Source: Candidatus Brocadiia bacterium (GTDB lineage Bacteria > Planctomycetota > Brocadiia > SM23-32). Taken from it: a stretch of DNA of 53,909 bases. The notes under the pieces were generated by a model. The model saw only the letters and a list, made by a program, of their open reading frames with translations. It made no database searches and was not told where the DNA came from. The stretch is from NCBI GenBank assembly GCA_046538485.1, contig JBKHIT010000032.1, positions 1 to 53,909 of the forward strand, read 5' to 3'. Below, one piece after another: positions 1-15,050 of the stretch (position 1 is its first letter; every line of letters begins with the position of its first letter). A program made the position numbers and the translations under genes.

Positions 1-196
1 CCAGGTGGTGCTCACCTACAGCGAGAGCCTCTACACTCAGCAGCTCGACAGCATCGTGTCACGGATCCGCAGATTCCTGATCGCAAAGAAAAGCAATATT
101 TCTGTCCTTCGCAAAGCATTATCTGCAAAGAACTTCCTGAAAAAACCCCTGATCTGTCGTCAAAAAAGACTTGGCACTATACACATGAACAGCTAA
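1..196 (+). pseudogene. Possible transposase fragment (IS1634-like) running in from the window start
   Basis: The frame is open from the edge. QVVLTYSESLYTQQL recalls a segment of IS1634-type transposases (from memory). The ORF decays into AT-rich sequence after about 25 codons. Confidence 0.25.
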
Positions 197-328
197 TATC
201 GTCGCGCATCAACAATGACGGCCGGGCCAGTTAGGTCCGGAGGCACGCATTTTCGCCAGAAGACAGGAGCCTGAAAGGAGGCAGCTAACGCTACGGCGCC
301 CGGACGGCGCTGAAAATGTGTTTTCTAC

Positions 329-541
329 CCCGCATTTCTCACGAAGCTAAAAGCAGTATTATTCTAAACGACACGACAGACAAACGTTACACTGCATTGA
401 GTGGCTGATCTCAGCACACACGGTGTATTCTGAATCTGAAAACGCCGGTTCGCCCTTCGGGAACGGCGCCAGCACTGCATCTTCTTTGTCAGCCTGCACT
501 TGAAGTATGAAAATACTCCTGCGCTTGGATTCCGCGCAGCT
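329..541 (-). mobile_element. Decayed IS right end / transposase C-terminal tail (IS1380-like), copy A
   Basis: Starts CCCGCATTTCTCAC. 329-448 aligns gap-free with 53790-53909 (84/120 identical by hand), and about 410-541 aligns with 7290-7414. The minus frame ends ...VRNAG* inside the terminal repeat, with one internal stop. Confidence 0.7.
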
Positions 542-835
542 CTCCAGGTAGGCGTCCAGCCACATCCCGGGATTGTCTGAGCGTTGCCTCCATCGGCACA
601 GGGCCGATGGAGGGCGTACGACGCAGAGCGCGCACGTAGTGGCGAATCATTCATCCCCCGACGCAGGGTCGGGAGTGTGACCCCGAACCGGATATGTCCC
701 GCAGGATATGCGACCTCTCGCTCTCTTTGTTCTGAGATATTTCGTCAATTTGATGTCACCGCATTTTCCAACGGATCAGGAGTTCTGAGTCCGGACTGTA
801 AACAGTAACGGGCAGCAAAAATACTTTCTGCGATT

Positions 836-2728
836 TCACCGTCCGGCCCCGATGCCGGCATCGATCAGTTTCTTGATGGTCTTCCGGTTGGCATCCCGAC
901 GGACAAAATCCTTCAGGTTGGCGGCAACTGTGGGACCAATGCCATTCAACTTTGCGATGTCTCCCGTCTCCGCCTGAAGTAACTCATCGAGAGAACCAAA
1001 ATGGCGCGCCAACATGACCGCTCGGACTTCCCCGATTTCGGGTATCCCCAGACCGTAAATAACACGATGGAGCGGCGCACGGCGTGAGGCCTCTATGGCC
1101 CGCAGAAGCTTCGCCGACGATTTTTGTGCAAAGCCGCTCAACGGGAGAAAATCCTCCGTCCGCAGGCCGTAAATGTCGGCCACTGATTTCACCAAACCGG
1201 CTTTTACGAGCTGTTCGGCCGTTCGCCTGCCAAAACCTTCGATATCCATACAGTCCCGGGAGACGAAATGGGTCAGACGTTCTGTCAATTGAGCGTGGCA
1301 CTTCTCGCCTGTGCAGTAAAGGCCGCCGTACTGGCCCTGTGTGAGTTTTGCTCCGCACGACGGGCATGTGGTTGGTAGCCGGATCGGCTTTTCGGAACCA
1401 TCCCGCAGAGCCGAGACCGGCCCGACGATCTCAGGGATGACATCGCCGGCGCGCCGCACCATCACGGAATCGCCAATTTTCAGTCCTTTCTTCTCAATCA
1501 CCACCGGACTGTGCAAATTCGCGCGGGTGACTCGAACGCCACCGATCTCCACCGGCTCAAGCACCGCCACGGGCGTCAAAAGTCCCGTGCGGCCGACTTC
1601 AAACTCGATACCGCGGAGTTCTGTCGCCGCTTTTTGCGGCGGAAACTTGAACGCAAGCGCCCAGCGCGGACTCGTGCGTGTCCGACCAAGGCGGCGCTGG
1701 TAATCGAAACGGTTTATTTTGATCACGATTCCGTCCACGGCGAGTTTCAGCTGTTCTCGCCGCTCGGCAACACTGTCGCGGAACTTGATAGCGGCCTCGA
1801 TATCCTCGCACCGCCGGCGGAGCTTATGAACGGGCAGCCCCCAACGCACAAATTGCTCGAGCAGTTCCTCCTGCGTTGCACAACCGACTTGATCGGGATC
1901 AGCAAGCCCGTAGAAGTACGCCCCGAGCCTCCGCCGGGCCGTCACAGCCGGATCCTTCTGACGCAGCGACCCGGCCGCTGCGTTGCGGGGCGTTGTAAAC
2001 GGGCGCCGACCGGCAGCACGGCGTTTCCGGTTCAGGGCGCGGAAATCATCTTTAGACATGTAGACCTCGCCTCGGACCGTTAACCTCGGCGGTACAAACC
2101 CGTCGGATGAGAACGTCAGTTTCTCCGGGATATCATCGATGGTTTTCACATTGGCCGTTACATCTTCGCCCGCCTTACCATCACCCCGCGTTGAGGCCCG
2201 CACAAGTGTGCCTTTCTTGTAGGTCAGTTCGACCGCGAGCCCGTCGTATTTCAGCTCGGCCAGATATTCAATCTCCTTCACTCCCAGGGCCTCCCGGCAT
2301 CCCGCGTCAAAGGCTTTCACATCGGATTGCCCGGTCGTGGACTCCAGGCTCAGCATCGGTGTCGGGTGTTTGACCTCCGGTAGCCCGGAAGCGGGTGTTG
2401 CTCCGACGGTCCGCGTGGGGGAATCCTCGGCCCGCAAATCGGGAAACGCTTTTTCTATCGCCGCAAGTCTCTGTTTGAGCGCATCGTATTGCTCGTCCGA
2501 AATCTCCGGCTCGTTAAGAACATAGTAACGGTAGTCGTGGTACCGTATTTCCTCCCGTAGCTGCTGCGCGATTTTTTCGGCCTTCTCTTCCGATAGTTCC
2601 TCTACGGGATCGGCCCCGATACCGGGCTGAACCGGCACGAGAATAGCGAAAACGAAAAGAGCTACGAAGGACTTCCGGGTTCCGGCAGTGAGACCCTTCC
2701 ACAGAACGCACATGTTGACATGAATCAT
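836..2728 (-). CDS. ligA: NAD-dependent DNA ligase (LigA-like) with predicted N-terminal signal peptide, lacking BRCT
   Basis: HDYRYY...EYD domain Ia, adenylation motif ELKYDG, TRGDG, RGEVYM, PRNAAAGSLRQ, DGIVIK, AFKFP, VGRTG, RRAGDVIP, C4 Zn finger CPSC...CTGEKC and HhH repeats. The protein ends right after the HhH region. Confidence 0.93.
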   Translation of the reverse strand: MIHVNMCVLWKGLTAGTRKSFVALFVFAILVPVQPGIGADPVEELSEEKAEKIAQQLREEIRYHDYRYYVLNEPEISDEQYDALKQRLAAIEKAFPDLRAEDSPTRTVGATPASGLPEVKHPTPMLSLESTTGQSDVKAFDAGCREALGVKEIEYLAELKYDGLAVELTYKKGTLVRASTRGDGKAGEDVTANVKTIDDIPEKLTFSSDGFVPPRLTVRGEVYMSKDDFRALNRKRRAAGRRPFTTPRNAAAGSLRQKDPAVTARRRLGAYFYGLADPDQVGCATQEELLEQFVRWGLPVHKLRRRCEDIEAAIKFRDSVAERREQLKLAVDGIVIKINRFDYQRRLGRTRTSPRWALAFKFPPQKAATELRGIEFEVGRTGLLTPVAVLEPVEIGGVRVTRANLHSPVVIEKKGLKIGDSVMVRRAGDVIPEIVGPVSALRDGSEKPIRLPTTCPSCGAKLTQGQYGGLYCTGEKCHAQLTERLTHFVSRDCMDIEGFGRRTAEQLVKAGLVKSVADIYGLRTEDFLPLSGFAQKSSAKLLRAIEASRRAPLHRVIYGLGIPEIGEVRAVMLARHFGSLDELLQAETGDIAKLNGIGPTVAANLKDFVRRDANRKTIKKLIDAGIGAGR

Positions 2729-2781
2729 GATCTAATCCCCATTTGGGCTGACTGTACTGGAAACTGTTAAAACGAAACGGC

Positions 2782-3093
2782 TCACTCTTTCGAGAACTTC
2801 ACCTGCCATTCGACGTTTTCCGAGTTGTCCGACCGGAGCATCAATTTGGTGACGGCCTGTCTGGAACGCAGGTCGGGCTCGACAGGCTCGAACCCCTCCG
2901 GCATGTGGATCCGCACCTCGCAGGGGTCGCCCCCCACTACTTCCCATTCTCTGCGCAAAGTGTATTCGTCCGCCTCCCACCGCACGTTGTGGGTGAAAAT
3001 CGCTCCCTGGGTCAGGTGACGACTTGTGCCGACAAATCGGGGGCGATCTTTCTGCTCCCAGTAACTCACGACGCGGCAGGAGGTCGGCGGCAC
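2782..3093 (-). pseudogene. C-terminal remnant of a glycoside hydrolase-like (alpha-galactosidase-type) gene
   Basis: VPPTSCRV...GTSRHLTQGA...W...VVGGDP.E.RI..P resembles the C-terminal beta domain of such enzymes (recalled motif). The upstream frame is closed by a stop at 3166-3168. Confidence 0.4.
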
Positions 3094-3295
3094 TTTGACA
3101 CAGACTCGCCCGTGGGGTTTTCCCGGATTCGCAGGTCGAAATGCCTGACCCTCGCCCGGCGAAGCTCAATATCCTATCATTCCTTATCGTTCTTGCCAAC
3201 CCACAACGCAAATTCCTCGGTTGTCAAATTCTTCTGGAACCGCTATATTTGCTCATTAATCGCATGAAATAAATTCTTTTCGCGAGAGGAGTCAC

Positions 3296-4117
3296 GTGCT
3301 TATGAAATTGGCGATGAACCCGGCAACAACCATGCCAGCTTCTTTTGAGGAAGACGTCATCGCCTATGCGGGGGCCGGATTTGATGCTATGGAAATCTGG
3401 CTCAGCAAAATCGACGACTATATGAAAGACGGCAAAGATCTTAAAGACGCCAGCCAGCTCATGAATGACAACAATATGGCGGCGGCTGGAGCCTGTTTTT
3501 CCGGTCTGACGTTTTCCGCCGACGAGACGGAAAAAGAAAGTTTTGACCAGTTTAAGACGCGACTGCAAATGTGCCAGGCTCTCGGCGCCGAAACTCTGGT
3601 GGTTATACCCACCGTCCCCGGTTCCCCCGTCACTCCCGACAAATACGATATCCTGGTGGAAGGCATGGCCCGCTGCTGCGACATCGCCGAGCCCTACGGT
3701 GTTTCCCTTGCCATTGAATTCATAAAAGGGGGAGGACTGATCGGGTCCGTGGCGACGGCGGCCGATATAGCCAACCGGACTCAACGCGACAATATCGGCG
3801 TTCTCTTTGACACTTTCCATTTCTATATGGGAATTTCGAAGGTCAGTGACATTCGCAATCTCTCCGGGGATGATATCCTGCTCATCCATTTCAACGACTG
3901 CCCCGATGTTTACCGCGAGATTGCCGAAGACGGGATGCGCATCCTTCCAGGCGAGGGGGCTATTCCGCTCCAAGAAATACTGGGCGCCGCACGGGACACA
4001 GGCTACAATGGTTTTGTGTCTCTCGAAATTTTCAATCAGGATATCTGGGATCTTGACGTAAAGGAGGCAGCGGAAATCAGTTACGAAAAAGCCTCGAGCT
4101 TCCTTGAAAATATTTAA
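3296..4117 (+). CDS. Sugar phosphate isomerase/epimerase (xylose-isomerase-like TIM barrel, IolI/IolE-like)
   Basis: AGFDAMEIW, LAIEF, FDTFHF, IHFND, RILPGEG and GFVSLEIFN metal-binding motifs. AGGAG RBS upstream; start is 3296 or 3302. Confidence 0.88.
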   Translation: MLMKLAMNPATTMPASFEEDVIAYAGAGFDAMEIWLSKIDDYMKDGKDLKDASQLMNDNNMAAAGACFSGLTFSADETEKESFDQFKTRLQMCQALGAETLVVIPTVPGSPVTPDKYDILVEGMARCCDIAEPYGVSLAIEFIKGGGLIGSVATAADIANRTQRDNIGVLFDTFHFYMGISKVSDIRNLSGDDILLIHFNDCPDVYREIAEDGMRILPGEGAIPLQEILGAARDTGYNGFVSLEIFNQDIWDLDVKEAAEISYEKASSFLENI

Positions 4118-7476: not shown

Positions 7477-10011
7477 TTATTGCTCTTTGTCTTTCTCTTT
7501 TTCCCCATCCGTCTCCGGCCCTTCATCTTCCCTGTCGGGGGCATCCTGATCCTGCTCTTCGCTCTCTTCACCGTCTTCAGGTTGTTCCTGTTCCGCAACG
7601 ACACGAGCCAAACCTATCAGTTTATCCTCTTTGCCGAGCGAGACAACTCTGACGCCCTGCGTATTTCTTCCGATACAGCTAATGCTCTCGGCGGGGATAC
7701 GAACCATTTTGCCCCCTTCGGTCAGGAACATCAGTTCCTCATCCTGTGTCACCGCGGCGGCTGCCACAACGGTTCCGTTACGCTCCGTGGTCTTGATGTC
7801 GATCAGGCCTTTCCCTCCCCTGTGTTGTGAAGAGTAATCCTCGAACGCCGTTCGCTTCCCGTATCCGTTCTGGCAGACAGTCAACATAGTGGCGTCCTCA
7901 CGTACCAAAGCCATATCCACAACCCTGTCATCCTCCGCGAGTCGAATACCGCGGACACCTTTGGCCGTTCGCCCCATGGACCTCACATCAGATTCGTGGA
8001 AACGGATTGCCTGGCCCCCGGCAGTCGAAAGGATAACTTCGTCATCGCCGCTGGTCCTCAGCACGCTCACCAGGCGGTCGTCTTCCTCCAGATTGATGGC
8101 TATGATTCCACCCGATCCACGTTTTCCGAAAGCATCCAGTGTCGTTTTCTTCACAGTTCCCTGTTCGGTCGCCATGATGAGGAAATAATCCTCATCGAAT
8201 TCCCGAACGGGTATCAACCCCGTGACCCGTTCGCCATCTTCCAATTCCAGCAGATTAATGATCGCCCGCCCTCGTGCAGTGCGGCCCATTTCGGGAATCT
8301 CAAAAACCCGAATCCAGTAGACCTGCCCGTAATTAGTAAACAGCATTATATAATCATGGGTCGACGAGACGAACAGGTGCCCGACGGCGTCTTCCTCTTT
8401 GAGATCCGCCCCCACAACACCTTTGCCCCCACGCCCCTGAGCGCGGAAAGCATCGATGGGCACTCGTTTCACGTAACCGCCGACACTGACTGTAACGACG
8501 ACATCTTCTTCGGGAATGAGATCGGCGCGGTTGAGATCTTCCACCGCCCCCGTGATGCCCGTGCGCCGTTCATCCCCGTATCTTTCCCGTATTTCGTGCA
8601 GATCTTCCCGAATAATATCAAGCACCAGATCGCGGTCTGCAAGAATCTTGCGGTAATCCTGGATTTTGTCCTGCAACTCGTCATACTCTTGATCTATCTT
8701 CAGCTGTTCCAATCCCACAAGCGTCTGTAAGCGCATGGCGAGTATCGCGTCGGCCTGCCGGTCAGAGAGCGAAAAGCTATCGATCAGTCTCTCCTGCGCT
8801 TCTTCTGTTTTCTCGCTTGACCGAACGATTGCAATAACTTCGTCGATATTGATCAGAGCCGTTCTCAGCCCTTCAAGCACGTGCGCCCGATCTTCAGCCT
8901 TGCCCAACAGGTGAGCCGTTCGGCGTCGGATGACCTCGACACGATGTTCCACATACTCGGTCATAATGCGTTTGATACTCACCGTTTCCGGCCGGCCATC
9001 GATGATCAAAACGAGCATTATGCTGAAAGTACTTTGGAGAGGGGTCCGGCGGAATATCTGATTGCGGACGACCTCGGCATCGGCACCTCTCTTCAGCTCC
9101 ACGGATATACGGGTGCCGGAAGAATCGCTTTCGTTGCGGATATCGGAGACACCTTCGATCGTGCCCGCTTCCACAGCATCGGCCATCTTCGCCACGATGG
9201 ACTCACGATTTACGTGGTAGGGCACTTCGGTGACAACGATACGATCACGCCCCTTTGAACGTTCTTCTATCTTGGTCCTTGCCCGCAACGTAATTGTGCC
9301 CCGGCCGGAGGTATAACCATCCAGAATCCCGGCTCTCCCACAAATGACTCCGCCCGTGGGAAAATCAGGGCCCGGAAGGATGTCCATAATTTCCGAGACG
9401 GATATATCCGGGTTTTCTATGCAAGCAACGATAGCATCGCAAATCTCACAGATGTTATGCGGAGGTATACTTGTGGCCATCCCGACGGCAATTCCGCTAC
9501 AGCCATTGGCCAGCAAATTCGGGAACCGACCGGGTAACACCGTAGGTTCCTGGCAGGTCCCCTCATAGTTATCCACAAAATCCACGGTGTCGAGATTTAA
9601 ATCATCCAGCATATCAGCGCCGATTCTCGTCAGGCGGGCCGCCGTGTAACGCATGGCCGCCGGAGGATCTCCATCGAGCGAACCAAAATTGCCCTGCCGA
9701 TCAACCAACGGATACCGGAAACTAAATGGCTGGCCCATCCGCACAAGGGTATCGTAAATGGCCGTATCACCGTGCGGGTGGTAGTTTCCGTGCGTATCAC
9801 CCACGATTTTGCCGCATTTACGGTGTTTAGAACGGGGACCAAGACGCAGCTCATTCATCGCGACAAGAATGCGTCTCTGAACGGGTTTCAGCCCATCGCG
9901 GACGTCAGGAAGGGCACGGCTGACAATGACGCTCATCGCGAACGTCAAATAGGAATCCCTCATCTCATCTTCAATGAGGATCTTTTCTGTTCGGTTATCT
10001 TTTTCTCTCAT
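7477..10011 (-). CDS. gyrA: DNA gyrase subunit A
   Basis: [22 protein letters not shown], catalytic AAMRY (Tyr122), GyrA-box QGRGGKG, six C-terminal pinwheel blades and an acidic tail. Confidence 0.97.
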
Positions 10012-11024
10012 AATTCTCGCTGTTCATGTCTCTTCGCTAAGCAACACAGCACCCAATCAAGCAAACTGTAGTAATCGTCATCCTGTTTTAGCTTCGTAAC
10101 CTTGTTAATACTACCTTCGGCCAGGTTACGCGTTCCTGCCGGAAAGAAAGCGCCTCTGCAGATTTTAACTAAATCAGCCCATAAAGCCTTCAAGTTCTGG
10201 CTAACACTCATCTTGCATCTCGACTCCAGGTACCTGTATCGAACTTTATTCTCGTCAAACCGAGCAGAATACAAATTACCGGACTTGCCGCTGACCAGAA
10301 GCGTGCACTGCACCCCACTGCTTTTCTCGCGCTCCACCGCTTTGAACCGTCTGTGGCTCCGCTCGAAATAAACACCGTCGATTTCTCCTCCATGCGAAAC
10401 CCTCAACTGCGTGGGGCCACCTCCTATCATCTGGACTTTTGCGCAGAAACCTGCGATCACGGCCTCAGGTGGAACGGATCGAACCGTACCTCGTTCGTCA
10501 GTTTGAAACTGCACTGCCTCCGGGCTGATACCGTAAAAGCGCGAAACCGGCAGCCGGTCAATTTCAGGAACATATCCCACATCCACAGCAAATGCATCGA
10601 TATCGAGTGCTTTCAAACGTCTCACCGCCACCTCGGCAGCGCTTTCCGTCAAATCTTTCGCAAGAATTCCTTGCCCCCGGGTAATTTGCATCTTGACCTC
10701 AACATCCGGTGTCTCGGTCAACTCACAGAGAACCTCCGAAGCAGCGATGGGGTTTACCTTCCGTTCATCGCGCACGCAAACGTAATATTTCCCTGTAGCG
10801 CCCGCGGGTTTCAAAGGACGCGAAAAATCTCCCGAAGAGGCCCCAACAGACTCTTCTTCAAAACCGACAGCTTCCTGCCTGTCCTCATTGTAGGTGTCAC
10901 CATCGCCGACCTCCACATCAGCCTGGCACACCGGGCATTTTTCACTCGCGCCCCGGCGTATACGTGCGACCTTAAATGTCGCGCCACAGGCAGGACAGGT
11001 GACCTGTACATCGAATTGGGCCAT
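10008..11024 (-). CDS. Hypothetical protein with N-terminal Zn ribbon and a central L7/L12-CTD-like segment
   Basis: CPACG...CPVC; ATG at 11024 with GGAAAG upstream. Its stop overlaps the gyrA start (ATGA). Confidence 0.75.
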
Positions 11025-11071
11025 TATACAATCTTTCCGGATTGACCAGATCCAGGTCGAAATAAAGAATC

Positions 11072-13558
11072 TCAAACGTCAAGATTACTGGCTTCCAATG
11101 CATGCATTTCAATGAATTCTCGACGCCGTTTCACATCCTTCCCGGCCAGAATGCTGAAGTAGTTGTCCGCTTCTATGGCATCGCCAACCGTAACCTGCAC
11201 AATTGTTCGCGTCTCGGGATCGAGCGTAGTTTCCCCCAGTTCGGTGGCATTCATTTCGCCGAGGCCTTTGTAACGATCAATGCTCAGTCCCTCGCGGCCA
11301 ATCTCACGCACACCGGCAACGACGTGGGAAAGCGAACCGACTGTTCTCTCCTCGTCATCCGACTTGATCGTGAACTTTGCTGGTTCCTGGTCCTCCTCCG
11401 GCGGCAGGATTGTATCGATCGGAATCCCACATGACTCGATTTCCCGCACGACACTGGAGAGACGTCCCGACTGGTGAAATTTATGTGGTCTAACCACATT
11501 TGGTTCACCACGCGTTCGGGCCAGGCCTTCGTAATCATCTTCTTCTATTATTTCCAGCTCTTCCTCGTACTCTTCCAGCCGCGCCGACAAATCTCTCACA
11601 AAATCGTCATACTCTGCCTCACTGTAGAAAAATTTCTGGTGCTCCTCACCTTCGCGGTCCGTGTGGACCACACGATACAGAGGAAACCGGTCGCCCGATT
11701 TCCCATCGCGCAGCCCAAGAAAATCCCCGAAAGGAATCCCATGCTGTTCCACAAGATGCATCATGCCATCCAGCACAGTCAATTGGTCGAGAAGGTTGCG
11801 GAATTGCACTGGGTCAAGTTGGGCACCGCTATCTTCCCCGTTCAGCGAATACTCAAGTGTCGCCTCCTTGGACCCCAGCTCAATCAATGCATCTTGCAAC
11901 GCACGGTCATCGTGTACGTATTGCTTTTTGCCGCTACGCTTTACACAATAAAGAGGCGGCTGCGCAATGTACAGGTGCCCGTGCTCAATTAGCCTGGGCA
12001 TTTGCCGAAAGAAAAACGTGAGGAGAAGGGTACGAATATGTGCTCCGTCGATATCGGCGTCTGTCATGATCACAACTTTATCATATCTCAGCCGCTCCAG
12101 GTCGAATTCCTCTGTGCCGATTCCCGTCCCCAGCGCTGTTATGAGGGTTGCTATCTCCTCATTCCCTAACATCTTGTCCACCCGCGCTTTCTCAACATTC
12201 AAAATGACGCCGCGAAGAGGTAATATGGCCTGAAATTGCCGATCGCGCCCCATGCTTGCCGTCCCCCCGGCGCTCTGTCCCTCAACGATAAAGAGCTCCG
12301 TTTCTTCCCGTTTCTTGCTCGAGCAATCACGAAGCTTCGTCGGCAGGTTTCCCCGACTCAAAGCCCCTTTTCTTCGCGTCAGGTCCCGCGCTTTCTTAGC
12401 TGCTTTCCGCGCACGTGCCGCTTCCACCGCCTTCTTAACAATTGTCCGCACAATGCCCGGATGCTCTTCGCAATAAACACTCAATTTCTCTCCGACAGCT
12501 TGTTCGACCAAACTCTTTATCCCGCGATTACCAAGCCTGGTCTTTGTCTGACCTTCGAACTGAGGCTCCGGCAGTTTGACGCTCACAACCGCAGTTAATC
12601 CTTCTCTATAGTCGTCGCCGGTTGGCGTAACGTCCTTCAGTTCATCGTTATCCCGTGCCCAATTATTGAACGTTCGAGTTACAGCCGTCCGAAAACCGCT
12701 CAGGTGCGTTCCTCCATCGACCGTATTAATGTTATTCGCGAAAGAAAAAATGACCTCATTAAATCCCTGATTATATTGAAGCGCTACCTCACATATCTTA
12801 CCGTCTTCTTCATCCTCCAGGCTGATCACGTTGCTGTGAACCGGGTCTTTTTCGCGGTTAAGGTACGCAACAAACTCCGTGATTCCTTCTTCGTAATGGA
12901 ACTCTTCTTCGTCCGACTCCCCTTCTTGCGACATGACGATCCGCGTTCCGCTATTCAAGAACGCAAGCTCTCGCAGACGATTGCCAATCCGATCAGAGTC
13001 AAACTCGCAGGGGTCGAAGATCTCAGGATCTGGCTTGAAAGTAACCCGCGTGCCCCTTCGGTTGCTGCGCCCCCGCTTCTCGACCGGAGTTTGCGGTTCT
13101 CCCCGCTCGTAGCGCTGATAATACATGTGATCATCCCGCCACACTTCGACCTCCATCCACTTACTCAAAGCATTGACGCATGAAACTCCGACTCCATGCA
13201 ACCCGGCCGATACTTTGTAGCTGTTTTTATCAAACTTGCCTCCCGCGTTAAGGGTTGTCATTACCACCTCAAGCGCCGGTTTCCCCGTATCTGGATGGCG
13301 ATCCACCGGAATACCACGTCCGTTGTCCATCAGCGAAATGCTACCATCACTATAAAGACGGACGGCTATCTCTGTACATTGACCCACCATAGCTTCATCA
13401 ATGCTATTCGCGACAACTTCCTCAAATAGATGATGAAGGCCTCTCTGCGCCGTATCTCCGATATACATCGCCGGACGCAGGCGAACGTGCTCAATCCCCC
13501 CTAAGACTCGAATGGACGAAGCATTATACCGATCTTTCTCTTTATCTTCTTCTGCCAT
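11072..13558 (-). CDS. gyrB: DNA gyrase subunit B (with long Toprim insertion)
   Basis: VRLRPAMYIG, DNGRGIP, GLHGVGVS, PQFEGQTK, FIVEGQSAGG, PLRG, MTDADIDG, RYKGLGEMN. Confidence 0.97.
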   Translation of the reverse strand: MAEEDKEKDRYNASSIRVLGGIEHVRLRPAMYIGDTAQRGLHHLFEEVVANSIDEAMVGQCTEIAVRLYSDGSISLMDNGRGIPVDRHPDTGKPALEVVMTTLNAGGKFDKNSYKVSAGLHGVGVSCVNALSKWMEVEVWRDDHMYYQRYERGEPQTPVEKRGRSNRRGTRVTFKPDPEIFDPCEFDSDRIGNRLRELAFLNSGTRIVMSQEGESDEEEFHYEEGITEFVAYLNREKDPVHSNVISLEDEEDGKICEVALQYNQGFNEVIFSFANNINTVDGGTHLSGFRTAVTRTFNNWARDNDELKDVTPTGDDYREGLTAVVSVKLPEPQFEGQTKTRLGNRGIKSLVEQAVGEKLSVYCEEHPGIVRTIVKKAVEAARARKAAKKARDLTRRKGALSRGNLPTKLRDCSSKKREETELFIVEGQSAGGTASMGRDRQFQAILPLRGVILNVEKARVDKMLGNEEIATLITALGTGIGTEEFDLERLRYDKVVIMTDADIDGAHIRTLLLTFFFRQMPRLIEHGHLYIAQPPLYCVKRSGKKQYVHDDRALQDALIELGSKEATLEYSLNGEDSGAQLDPVQFRNLLDQLTVLDGMMHLVEQHGIPFGDFLGLRDGKSGDRFPLYRVVHTDREGEEHQKFFYSEAEYDDFVRDLSARLEEYEEELEIIEEDDYEGLARTRGEPNVVRPHKFHQSGRLSSVVREIESCGIPIDTILPPEEDQEPAKFTIKSDDEERTVGSLSHVVAGVREIGREGLSIDRYKGLGEMNATELGETTLDPETRTIVQVTVGDAIEADNYFSILAGKDVKRRREFIEMHALEASNLDV

Positions 13559-13605: not shown

Positions 13606-13935
13606 TTACTGGTCTCCAAGACAAAAACGTACTTCTGCGACGTCCTCTCCTCCTGAGGTGCGTCGTAACTCTTCAAGTATCGTCTCACGCATAAAACCAC
13701 TTAATTCCTGCAGGAGCACCGACGACTCAACTTCAACTCGCAGCTTCCCATCTTCATACGAGGCGATCCGCGTTCGGGAAGCAATCTCCGGCCCGGCAAC
13801 TTCCTCCCAAGCTCGCGAAACAGCACTGTACCTGCCCTTTTGATAAAACCGCTTTTGCTTCAGAACACGGGATAGAACCGCACCAAAACCCCGCGCGCTG
13901 GAGCGACTGTATCGAACCGTATCACCAAAAGTCAT
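13606..13935 (-). CDS. DUF721 / DciA-like protein
   Basis: AWEEVAGPEIASRT...GKLRVEVESSVLLQEL pattern; canonical position between dnaN and gyrB; ATGA overlap with dnaN. Confidence 0.85.
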   Translation of the reverse strand: MTFGDTVRYSRSSARGFGAVLSRVLKQKRFYQKGRYSAVSRAWEEVAGPEIASRTRIASYEDGKLRVEVESSVLLQELSGFMRETILEELRRTSGGEDVAEVRFCLGDQ

Positions 13936-15050
13936 TTCTCAGCCTCTTCACGCACAACCGGACTAACGACATATACATAATCCACCCCGCAACGAATCAC
14001 ACAGGGGGACCCCCGATCACTAAACTCCATCTTTACGCTCTCTCTGTCCACGACCTCAAGTACCTGCTGGATATACTCTGGATTGAACGCAATCTCTCGC
14101 TCTTCCCCATCATAATCAATCGGAACTTTAACTTGCGCGTCCCCAAGATCAGGAGACTGAGAACTCAGGACTAACAAACCATCCGAAAGAGTGAAATCCA
14201 CCACGCGCGTCTGGTCGGATGTCATAAATGAAGCTCGCCGCAGGGCATTCAACGTCGCTTTCGTAGGGAGCTCCGCTTTAAATTTGTTTTCTCGTGGTAT
14301 TACCTCATGGTAATTAGGGAATTGTCCCTCTACCAGCTGGCACCGAACCCGTCCACGCCCATTTTCAGCAAAAAACTGATTCTCTGTCGCCTGAAATCGA
14401 AGCGGTTCTTCACTCAATAGGGCCAGGCGAGCAGCTTGTTGTATGCCCTTTTTCATTACGATGCAATCAACGGTTTGTCCCTCTGGATTACTGACCTTCT
14501 TCTTTACATTCGCTAACCGTGCCCCATCAGCTCCTACCATCTCAAAATTACCATCTTCGTCAACTATAACTAATATTCCGTTCAGTGCATACCGTCCCTT
14601 TTCATCAGCGGCTGCAAAAGTAGTCCTGTCTACCATAAACTGTAAAACCGCTGGATCGACTTCGATGATGCTATCTTCAGAAACCCCTGATATATCCGCG
14701 TACTCTTCGGGGTTCTCGCTCACCATGTGAAATTGACCGTCCGAAGCTTTAAGAGTGACGGAACTTGCGTCTCCTTCCAGCGTTATCCTTTCATCCGGTG
14801 TCGCACGCAAAATGGGCGAAATACGACTATAAGGGGTAAGGACGGCTCCTTCCTCCTCAATTTCAACATTCTGGGCCTGGACTCGTAATCCTACCTCCAG
14901 ATCAGTTGCCGAAAGGAAAACACCTTCTTCGCTGGCTTCAATTTTTACGTTTTGGTAGATGGGCCGAGCGATGGTCGATGTGATGATGCTACCAACATGT
15001 TGAAAGGCATCATGCAAAGCTTCACAATCTGCAGTAAATTTCATGAGCAT
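13932..15050 (-). CDS. dnaN: DNA polymerase III beta sliding clamp
   Basis: 372 aa; LSATDLEV, RYALNG, ADGARL, LVEGQFPNY..VIP, IAFNPEY, YVVSPV. Confidence 0.96.
   Translation of the reverse strand: MLMKFTADCEALHDAFQHVGSIITSTIARPIYQNVKIEASEEGVFLSATDLEVGLRVQAQNVEIEEEGAVLTPYSRISPILRATPDERITLEGDASSVTLKASDGQFHMVSENPEEYADISGVSEDSIIEVDPAVLQFMVDRTTFAAADEKGRYALNGILVIVDEDGNFEMVGADGARLANVKKKVSNPEGQTVDCIVMKKGIQQAARLALLSEEPLRFQATENQFFAENGRGRVRCQLVEGQFPNYHEVIPRENKFKAELPTKATLNALRRASFMTSDQTRVVDFTLSDGLLVLSSQSPDLGDAQVKVPIDYDGEEREIAFNPEYIQQVLEVVDRESVKMEFSDRGSPCVIRCGVDYVYVVSPVVREEAEK

Follow-up and report, generated by a model that had tools for sequence, protein, structure and literature searches.

The window analyzed here is a 53,909-nucleotide stretch of DNA (contig JBKHIT010000032.1 of the Candidatus Brocadiia bacterium assembly GCA_046538485.1), and our subject is a reverse-strand gene at 836..2728, which encodes a DNA ligase of the nicotinamide adenine dinucleotide (NAD+)-dependent LigA type with a leader ahead of its catalytic body and no BRCT domain behind it. 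A preliminary description, made from the sequence, had proposed a second, LigA-derived ligase targeted to the periplasm or membrane. The source genome of the window (G000; other genomes have G-numbers of their own) is a 5.19 Mb assembly of 143 contigs (completeness 88.3%, contamination 4.0%). The window protein is referred to as P0001 and its database relatives by further P-numbers. The gene and its parts are the following (NMN, nicotinamide mononucleotide; HhH, helix-hairpin-helix).

836..2728, reverse strand: coding sequence of an NAD+-dependent DNA ligase, LigA type, with N-terminal leader and without BRCT; 630 residues plus the stop codon at 836-838
2736..2740, reverse strand: Shine-Dalgarno-like stretch GGGGA, 7 nt before ATG 2728, read from the sequence
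2672..2728, reverse strand: n-region of the leader, codons 1-19 (MIHVNMCVLWKGLTAGTRK), net charge +3, with a second ATG at codon 6
2630..2671, reverse strand: h-region of the leader, codons 20-33 (SFVALFVFAILVPV), best 11-residue Kyte-Doolittle mean 3.34; GTG31 is a possible alternative start
2612..2629, reverse strand: c-region of the leader, codons 34-39 (QPGIGA), A39 at -1 and I37 at -3, assigned by rule
2435..2578, reverse strand: domain Ia (NMN-binding), residues 51-98; Pfam Nlig-Ia PF22745, 33.1 bits (cut-off 27)
1634..2386, reverse strand: adenylation (nucleotidyltransferase) domain, residues 115-365; DNA_ligase_aden PF01653, 283.1 bits; K160 at 2249-2251
1394..1624, reverse strand: OB-fold domain, residues 369-445; DNA_ligase_OB PF03120, 100.9 bits
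1298..1366, reverse strand: C4 zinc finger, C455-x2-C458 ... C472-x4-C477, with four cysteines; PF03119 sub-threshold at 16.6 bits against a cut-off of 25.8
875..1288, reverse strand: HhH domain, about residues 481-618; HHH_2 PF12826, 62.8 bits

The frame of 630 residues at 836..2728 and the GGGGA before its ATG, as first described, are confirmed from the sequence. This ATG lies at 2728-2726, and because an in-frame TAG stands two codons upstream, no earlier start is possible for the ligase frame. Ahead of domain Ia, the only candidate starts (ATG, GTG or TTG) are ATG1, ATG6 and GTG31; the next ones, TTG98 and ATG125, would remove domain Ia if they were used. It had also been stated that no ATG lies between the hydrophobic stretch and the ligase core; this is correct, though GTG31 falls inside the stretch itself. 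GTG31 is not preceded by a purine-rich stretch, and P0002, which is 90% identical to the window protein, has Leu at this position.

The order of the domains (Ia, adenylation, OB, zinc finger, HhH) is that of replicative LigAs of solved structure (E. coli 2OWO/5TT5, Thermus filiformis 1V9P/1DGS, M. tuberculosis 3SGI), to which residues 47-627 align with E ~1e-138, and the KxDG motif and the domain Ia residues of these enzymes are kept. In contrast to them, the window protein carries about 40 extra, signal-peptide-like residues at its N-terminus, has a basic isoelectric point (pI), lacks BRCT, is the third copy in its genome and belongs to a rare clade. It ends 12 residues past the HhH domain (..IDAGIGAGR), at the point where its relatives enter BRCT, and shows no Pfam match to BRCT (PF00533). 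The LigA equivalog models clear their curated cut-offs by a wide margin (NF005932, 692.9 vs 369; TIGR00575, 683.4 vs 444.45); they cover only positions 3-575 of 664, because BRCT is missing. Identity as LigB was considered and rejected (NF005987, 218.4 bits vs a cut-off of 498). The adenylation domain of ligases dependent on adenosine triphosphate (ATP), PF01068, has no match on the window protein and none in the G000 genome. These results uphold the earlier account of a LigA-derived protein that lacks BRCT and has an intact KxDG and four intact zinc cysteines, even though the Pfam zinc-finger model stays below its threshold.

Residues ahead of domain Ia were compared with the von Heijne rules for signal peptides: a positive n-region, an h-region of about 7-15 residues, small residues at -3 and -1, and no Pro at +1. 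The basic n-region, hydrophobic stretch and GIGA|D site reported in the preliminary description are all present by these rules, and the leader has the anatomy of a Sec/signal peptidase I substrate: an n-region of charge +3, the 14-residue core SFVALFVFAILVPV, and a Pro/Gly-rich c-region ending in a proposed signal peptidase I site, I37-G38-A39|D40, without Pro at +1. The next 15 residues have a net charge of -4. A lipoprotein (signal peptidase II) signal is not supported, since Cys is absent between residues 8 and 143, which leaves no lipobox; nor is a Tat signal, the n-region T-R-K-S-F having no twin arginine. In an AlphaFold2 model based on 36 sequences, residues 1-40 have predicted local distance difference test scores (pLDDT) of 37-50 and form a single isolated helix (15-30), while the ligase core scores about 90. 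Alignment to the solved LigA structures covers residues ~47 to 627 and leaves the first ~46 without a counterpart; together with the low pLDDT, this indicates that the first ~40 residues have been added to a LigA catalytic body that is itself complete.

To place the leader among relatives, we compared the window protein with its 120 best database relatives, taken as 90%-identity clusters (121 proteins in total). A leader was scored by rule, as an N-terminal 11-residue Kyte-Doolittle window of at least 1.7. This value is reached by 19 of the 121 proteins, the window protein included, and the remaining 102 score at most 0.98. All 19 belong to a group made up of the window protein and the 20 clusters nearest to it, which we call the leader clade (n = 21): 19/21 clade members have the leader, against 0/100 of the other LigA matches. 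Thus the leader, which the preliminary description had proposed to look for in homologs, is kept by nearly the whole clade. In a tree computed with the 'quick' setting of IQ-TREE (71 rows, 680 columns; part of the set of 121, together with six proteins taken from genomes), all leader-bearing rows form one clade, with a Shimodaira-Hasegawa-like approximate likelihood-ratio support of 100 and a stem of 0.52. This clade has 22 rows, of which 20 have a leader (one is a duplicate of P0025) and two, P0008 and P0011, are called without one.

Clade members are 47-60% identical to the window protein, except P0002 at 90%, and their leaders cannot be aligned to one another: the shape is shared, not the sequence. 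Between 0 and 6 net positive charges precede a run of 14-26 uncharged residues, often followed by Pro/Gly and then by small residues at -3 and -1 (GIGA|D, GFA|E, TASA|E, FAFA|E, LGA|E), with a neutral-to-acidic stretch between leader and domain Ia. In all 19 leaders the charge of the N-terminal flank is at least 0 and above that of the C-terminal flank. By the positive-inside rule, these flanks predict, as judged from the sequences, an N-in/C-out topology, with which they fit. In the closest pair, P0001 and P0002, the substitutions within the core (F21I, I29F, V31L, V33A) exchange one hydrophobic residue for another. Residues of the catalytic body are also conserved: K160-Y-D-G (the KxDG motif), Y63, H64, Y81, D82 and the zinc ligands C455, C458, C472 and C477 are invariant across the clade, which indicates that selection has kept an active, NAD+-using enzyme.

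As a control, the frame ahead of domain Ia was read from stop to stop in each fetched LigA locus. The LigA frame was recovered in 74 of 84 genomic loci, representing 66 distinct places, and a leader behind a start codon occurs only in the window, G005 and G485. None of the other 63 distinct loci has one; two windows do reach 1.7 (L030, 1.72; L066, 1.99), both containing charged residues. A metagenome scan with P0013 returned at least 31 loci, P0013's own contig not being among the matches listed; the LigA frame was read in 26 of them, with a leader in 0/26. Six related metagenome loci (L102, L103, L105-L107, L122) have a short, moderately hydrophobic stretch of 1.0-2.0, which in four is not preceded by a start codon.

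The clade differs from other LigAs in charge as well. Its pI exceeds 8 in 19/21 members (median pI 9.40, median net charge +16), compared with 7 of the other 100 matches (median pI 4.80, median net charge -47). The window protein has a pI of 9.29, and its predicted mature form 9.19. The preliminary description had paired the leader with the loss of BRCT, and both are indeed found in the window protein, but they are not coupled: six BRCT-less proteins (P0001-5 and P0007) form a subclade with support of 100 and a common C-terminal end, while the other 15 clade members have BRCT and 13 of these have the leader. Leader and BRCT loss are therefore separate events, and the shared C-terminal end indicates that BRCT was lost long ago, in an event distinct from the one that gave the leader.

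In the genome of the window, the NAD-ligase adenylation domain is matched three times in total, the window protein included. Both others, on C36 (677 residues, pI 5.00) and C107 (680 residues, pI 4.59), have BRCT and short, polar N-termini without a leader, and both they and the window contig are typical of the bin in guanine-cytosine content and tetranucleotide make-up. Thus a search for a separate canonical LigA with BRCT, suggested in the preliminary description, finds two; the window ligase is not the sole NAD ligase of G000 and is an extra copy as proposed, but the third rather than the second. The same pairing recurs in G005, of the same family as G000, where a leader-bearing, BRCT-less ligase accompanies a C107-like canonical one. 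The C36 LigA sits on a long tree branch (1.19). Among 40 searched relatives of G000, 15 have two NAD-ligase matches, some of them visibly fragments of one gene.

The clade is rare. Searched against the 90%-identity cluster database, a profile of its 21 proteins returns the known 20 clusters as the top 20 matches (961-1204 bits; the next scores 938) and no further member. A library of 1.84 billion proteins (50%-identity representatives) yields one near-clade match, P0014, at 694 bits, with the next at 540. Members occur in 2 of 132 species genomes of the class (G000 and G005), and in a sample of 401 genomes of the phylum only G485 joins G000, giving 3 of ~530 Planctomycetota species genomes searched (G000, G005, G485). 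The source names of three clade clusters are Planctomycetes or Planctomycetota. A scan of genome contigs with P0001 gave 30 loci, none of them a clade member: each holds an ordinary LigA, at 36-46% identity. The window DNA itself recurs in microbial-mat and salt-lake metagenomes, and a related strain in another metagenome is colinear with it over 2281-3099, without gaps.

From these sequence features we consider it somewhat better than an even chance that the window gene encodes a Sec-exported or periplasm-facing accessory ligase, the third NAD+-dependent LigA of its genome and an analog of Lig E. The LigA origin, the leader and the extra copy of the earlier proposal stand, its count of two does not, and for targeting outside the cytoplasm we infer translocation, cleavage, a DNA substrate and a supply of NAD+ along the following lines. 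Through its basic n-region and 14-residue hydrophobic core, the nascent ligase would be brought to the Sec translocon, and the acidic segment after the core would be translocated. Signal peptidase I would probably cleave after GIGA39; alternatively, the leader might be retained as an N-in/C-out anchor. The product would be a basic (pI ~9.2) ligase of ~591 residues, in or facing the periplasm, where it could seal nicks in double-stranded DNA, either DNA under uptake or extracellular DNA, as proposed for Lig E. The exported enzyme would still require NAD+.

It is instructive to compare this predicted enzyme with ligases already described. According to PMC4220977, the Lig E enzyme Psy-Lig has a predicted cleavable, periplasmic leader of 40 residues. 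The Lig E literature (PMC4220977, PMC10799422 and bioRxiv 10.64898/2026.03.22.713542) associates the enzyme with biofilm and with the transformation of cells by damaged DNA, and a role on extracellular or incoming DNA is proposed in PMC10799422 and in the preprint. The window ligase would resemble Lig E (Psy-Lig, Ngo-Lig E) in being an accessory ligase with a predicted leader, here of rule-based anatomy, and both, in our view, would face the question of cofactor supply outside the cytoplasm. In contrast, Lig E is ATP-dependent, has ~260 residues with adenylation and OB domains only, and belongs to Proteobacteria, whereas the window ligase is of the NAD+-dependent type, from Planctomycetota, with ~590 residues in its predicted mature form, domains Ia, Zn and HhH in addition, and no PF01068. 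Like LigB of gammaproteobacteria, it is an extra NAD+-dependent ligase without BRCT; however, the zinc finger of LigB is degenerate and LigB is not known to have a leader, whereas the window protein keeps all four zinc cysteines. No report of a leader-bearing NAD-dependent ligase was found in the literature searched, in which ATP-dependent Lig E is the only bacterial ligase class reported with an export leader; the Tuwongella proteome paper (PMC8567305) for its part notes LigA homologs in cell fractions. The enzyme family and the idea of a periplasmic ligase (the latter from Lig E) are already known, while the combination of a monophyletic, basic LigA clade with leaders, one subclade of which lacks BRCT, appears to be undescribed.

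Several observations weigh against export. No periplasmic supply of NAD+ is known, and adenylation of the enzyme beforehand in the cytoplasm is no answer to this problem, because Sec exports unfolded protein. The four zinc-finger cysteines of an exported enzyme would face an oxidising compartment, and BRCT, a domain normally tied to the cytoplasmic enzyme, is kept in 13/19 leader-bearing members. P0008 and P0011, called without a leader, may represent true loss or a mis-called start. The leader rule also flags 23.4% of the 2,782 open reading frames of at least 200 residues in G000; because it is this crude, a single call weighs little, and the weight lies on the clade pattern. No conserved neighbor is shared among the three loci examined (window, G005, G485). 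Finally, no canonical leaderless LigA was found in G485, which is 94% complete: only the leader form with BRCT and a very divergent NAD ligase of 762 residues. The leader form may therefore be the main ligase of that genome, and a replicative ligase must act in the cytoplasm, so leader-bearing forms may have a cytoplasmic role.

The divergent G485 ligase (C75:2039-4327; L052/L127) has KADG and two C-terminal BRCT-like repeats, lies on a tree branch of length 6.6, and sits amid housekeeping genes (SelO, MTHFR, a pterin-binding enzyme). In G349, the one other genome of the same order, an ordinary LigA is present and the 762-residue ligase is absent. Besides the ligase, only a LOG-like gene is common to the G349 locus and G485, where it lies elsewhere, and gene order is not conserved; given this lack of synteny, a canonical ligA of G485 may have been lost or may simply be missing from the assembly.

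A ligase that is membrane-tethered or dual-localised and acts in the cytoplasm seems to us unlikely but deserving of serious attention. It could arise if the hydrophobic N-terminus stays uncleaved and anchors a catalytic part that lies inside, from inefficient export, or from a downstream-start isoform, and part of the protein would then act on chromosomal DNA at the membrane. The apparent absence of an ordinary leaderless LigA from G485 and the BRCT of the 13/19 leader-bearing members would both suit such an enzyme, as would the cytoplasm itself, the place of NAD+ and of reducing conditions for a zinc finger. Some homologs have uncharged runs of 21-26 residues, enough for a membrane helix, but the window h-region has just 14. 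Internal Met or GTG codons occur in some leaders (GTG31 in the window protein, M22/M24 in P0007, M23 in P0003), but their positions are not conserved. The charge flanks of 19/19 leaders favor N-in/C-out, and Pro/Gly-rich c-regions with small -3/-1 residues recur, both of which speak for translocation rather than for a catalytic part held inside. As for G485, it is 94% complete, and its 762-residue ligase amid housekeeping genes could be the replicative one.

Could the leader simply be untranslated? Translation would then start at GTG31 and yield an ordinary repair ligase of the cytoplasm that lacks BRCT; the hydrophobic stretch would be a 5' leader read through by gene callers. A start at GTG31 would keep domain Ia intact, gene callers favor long open reading frames, and two clade members, P0008 and P0011, have no leader in their called form. 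We nevertheless hold this to be quite improbable: GGGGA precedes ATG1 and nothing purine-rich precedes GTG31, and the codon is replaced by Leu in P0002. Moreover, 19/21 members, at 47-90% identity and with leaders that cannot be aligned, have a start codon followed in frame by a hydrophobic stretch, the upstream stop-to-stop frames of the 63 + 26 other LigA loci contain no such stretch, and the core substitutions between P0001 and P0002 are all hydrophobic-to-hydrophobic.

Export of a folded ligase by Tat, to which we give an equally slight chance, would solve the zinc and NAD+ problems together: the enzyme would be zinc-bound and adenylated in the cytoplasm and would act outside pre-charged, in an essentially single-turnover manner. 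The window n-region T-R-K-S-F-V-A is close to the Tat consensus (S/T-R-R-x-F-L-K), and RR precedes the core in 5/19 leaders, such as SRRII in P0010 and TRRLF in P0017. However, the window protein has RK instead of RR, 14/19 leaders have no RR, and a core as hydrophobic as that of the window (3.34 on the Kyte-Doolittle scale) is more typical of Sec than of Tat leaders. A decaying or functionless paralog gained by transfer, to which a patchy distribution (3 of ~530 species genomes of the phylum), a dispersed repeat directly downstream and the lost BRCT might point, is very improbable: the frame is unbroken, members of the clade share all catalytic, NMN-binding and zinc residues although their identity to the window protein is only 47-60% (P0002, 90%), the same shortened C-terminus occurs in 6/6 subclade members, and the related metagenome strain is colinear without gaps over 2281-3099.

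The surroundings of the ligase gene comprise the following features.

13932-15050, reverse strand: dnaN
13606-13935, reverse strand: gene with a DciA domain
11072-13558, reverse strand: gyrB
10008-11075, reverse strand: unannotated open reading frame of 355 residues with CxxC pairs
7477-10011, reverse strand: gyrA
3296-4117, forward strand: xylose-isomerase-like TIM-barrel gene (PF01261), divergent from the pair formed by the next open reading frame and the ligase
3199-3171, reverse strand: sigma-70-like site TTGGCA-17-TAGGAT, with TG, before the 103-residue open reading frame
2782-3093, reverse strand: conserved hypothetical open reading frame of 103 residues, ending 53 nt before the ligase start
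600-800: dispersed repeat, directly 3' of the ligase stop codon

The ligase lies ~5 kb beyond gyrA, in a region (dnaN-dciA-gyrB-unknown-gyrA) of the kind found as a replication-origin-type cluster. The 103-residue open reading frame matches no Pfam family and has no visible link to the ligase; its look-alikes (score 0.96) are 107-residue hypothetical proteins, mostly of Acidobacteriota and Gemmatimonadota. Because the sigma-70-like site precedes it, this frame and the ligase may form one transcript. The PF01261 family also holds endonuclease IV, and the product of 3296-4117 may be a sugar isomerase or an AP endonuclease. Parts of the repeat occur elsewhere in G000 (C26:62716-62840, 90%; C9:11223-11318, 97%; C118; C65), and many contigs from four metagenome runs stack on 600-790; their loose ends lie near 655, 756 and 788. 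Scans of window positions 1-3400 for tRNA genes and Rfam families found nothing. G000 encodes signal peptidase I, ComEC and ComEA-like HHH_3 proteins; these are widespread and therefore add little to the case for export.

In bacteria, LigA is regarded as an invariant ligase of replication, confined to the cytoplasm. The broader proposal, which we put at just under an even chance, is that a rare clade of Planctomycetota turned this NAD+-dependent enzyme into a secreted, strongly basic periplasmic ligase, an independent analog of Lig E. If so, usable NAD+ and ligatable double-stranded DNA would both be present in the enlarged planctomycetal periplasm, and the enzyme might, for example, repair DNA taken up from hypersaline mats before its import; where NAD+ comes from outside the cytoplasm then becomes a testable question. 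More speculatively, a basic ligase from mat and salt-lake samples could be of interest as a salt-tolerant NAD+ ligase. A LigA clade with conserved leaders and a shift of ~4.6 pI units would mean that a DNA ligase outside the cytoplasm had arisen a second time, independently, and would strengthen the case for DNA joining outside the cytoplasm, in the uptake of damaged DNA or in the extracellular DNA matrix.

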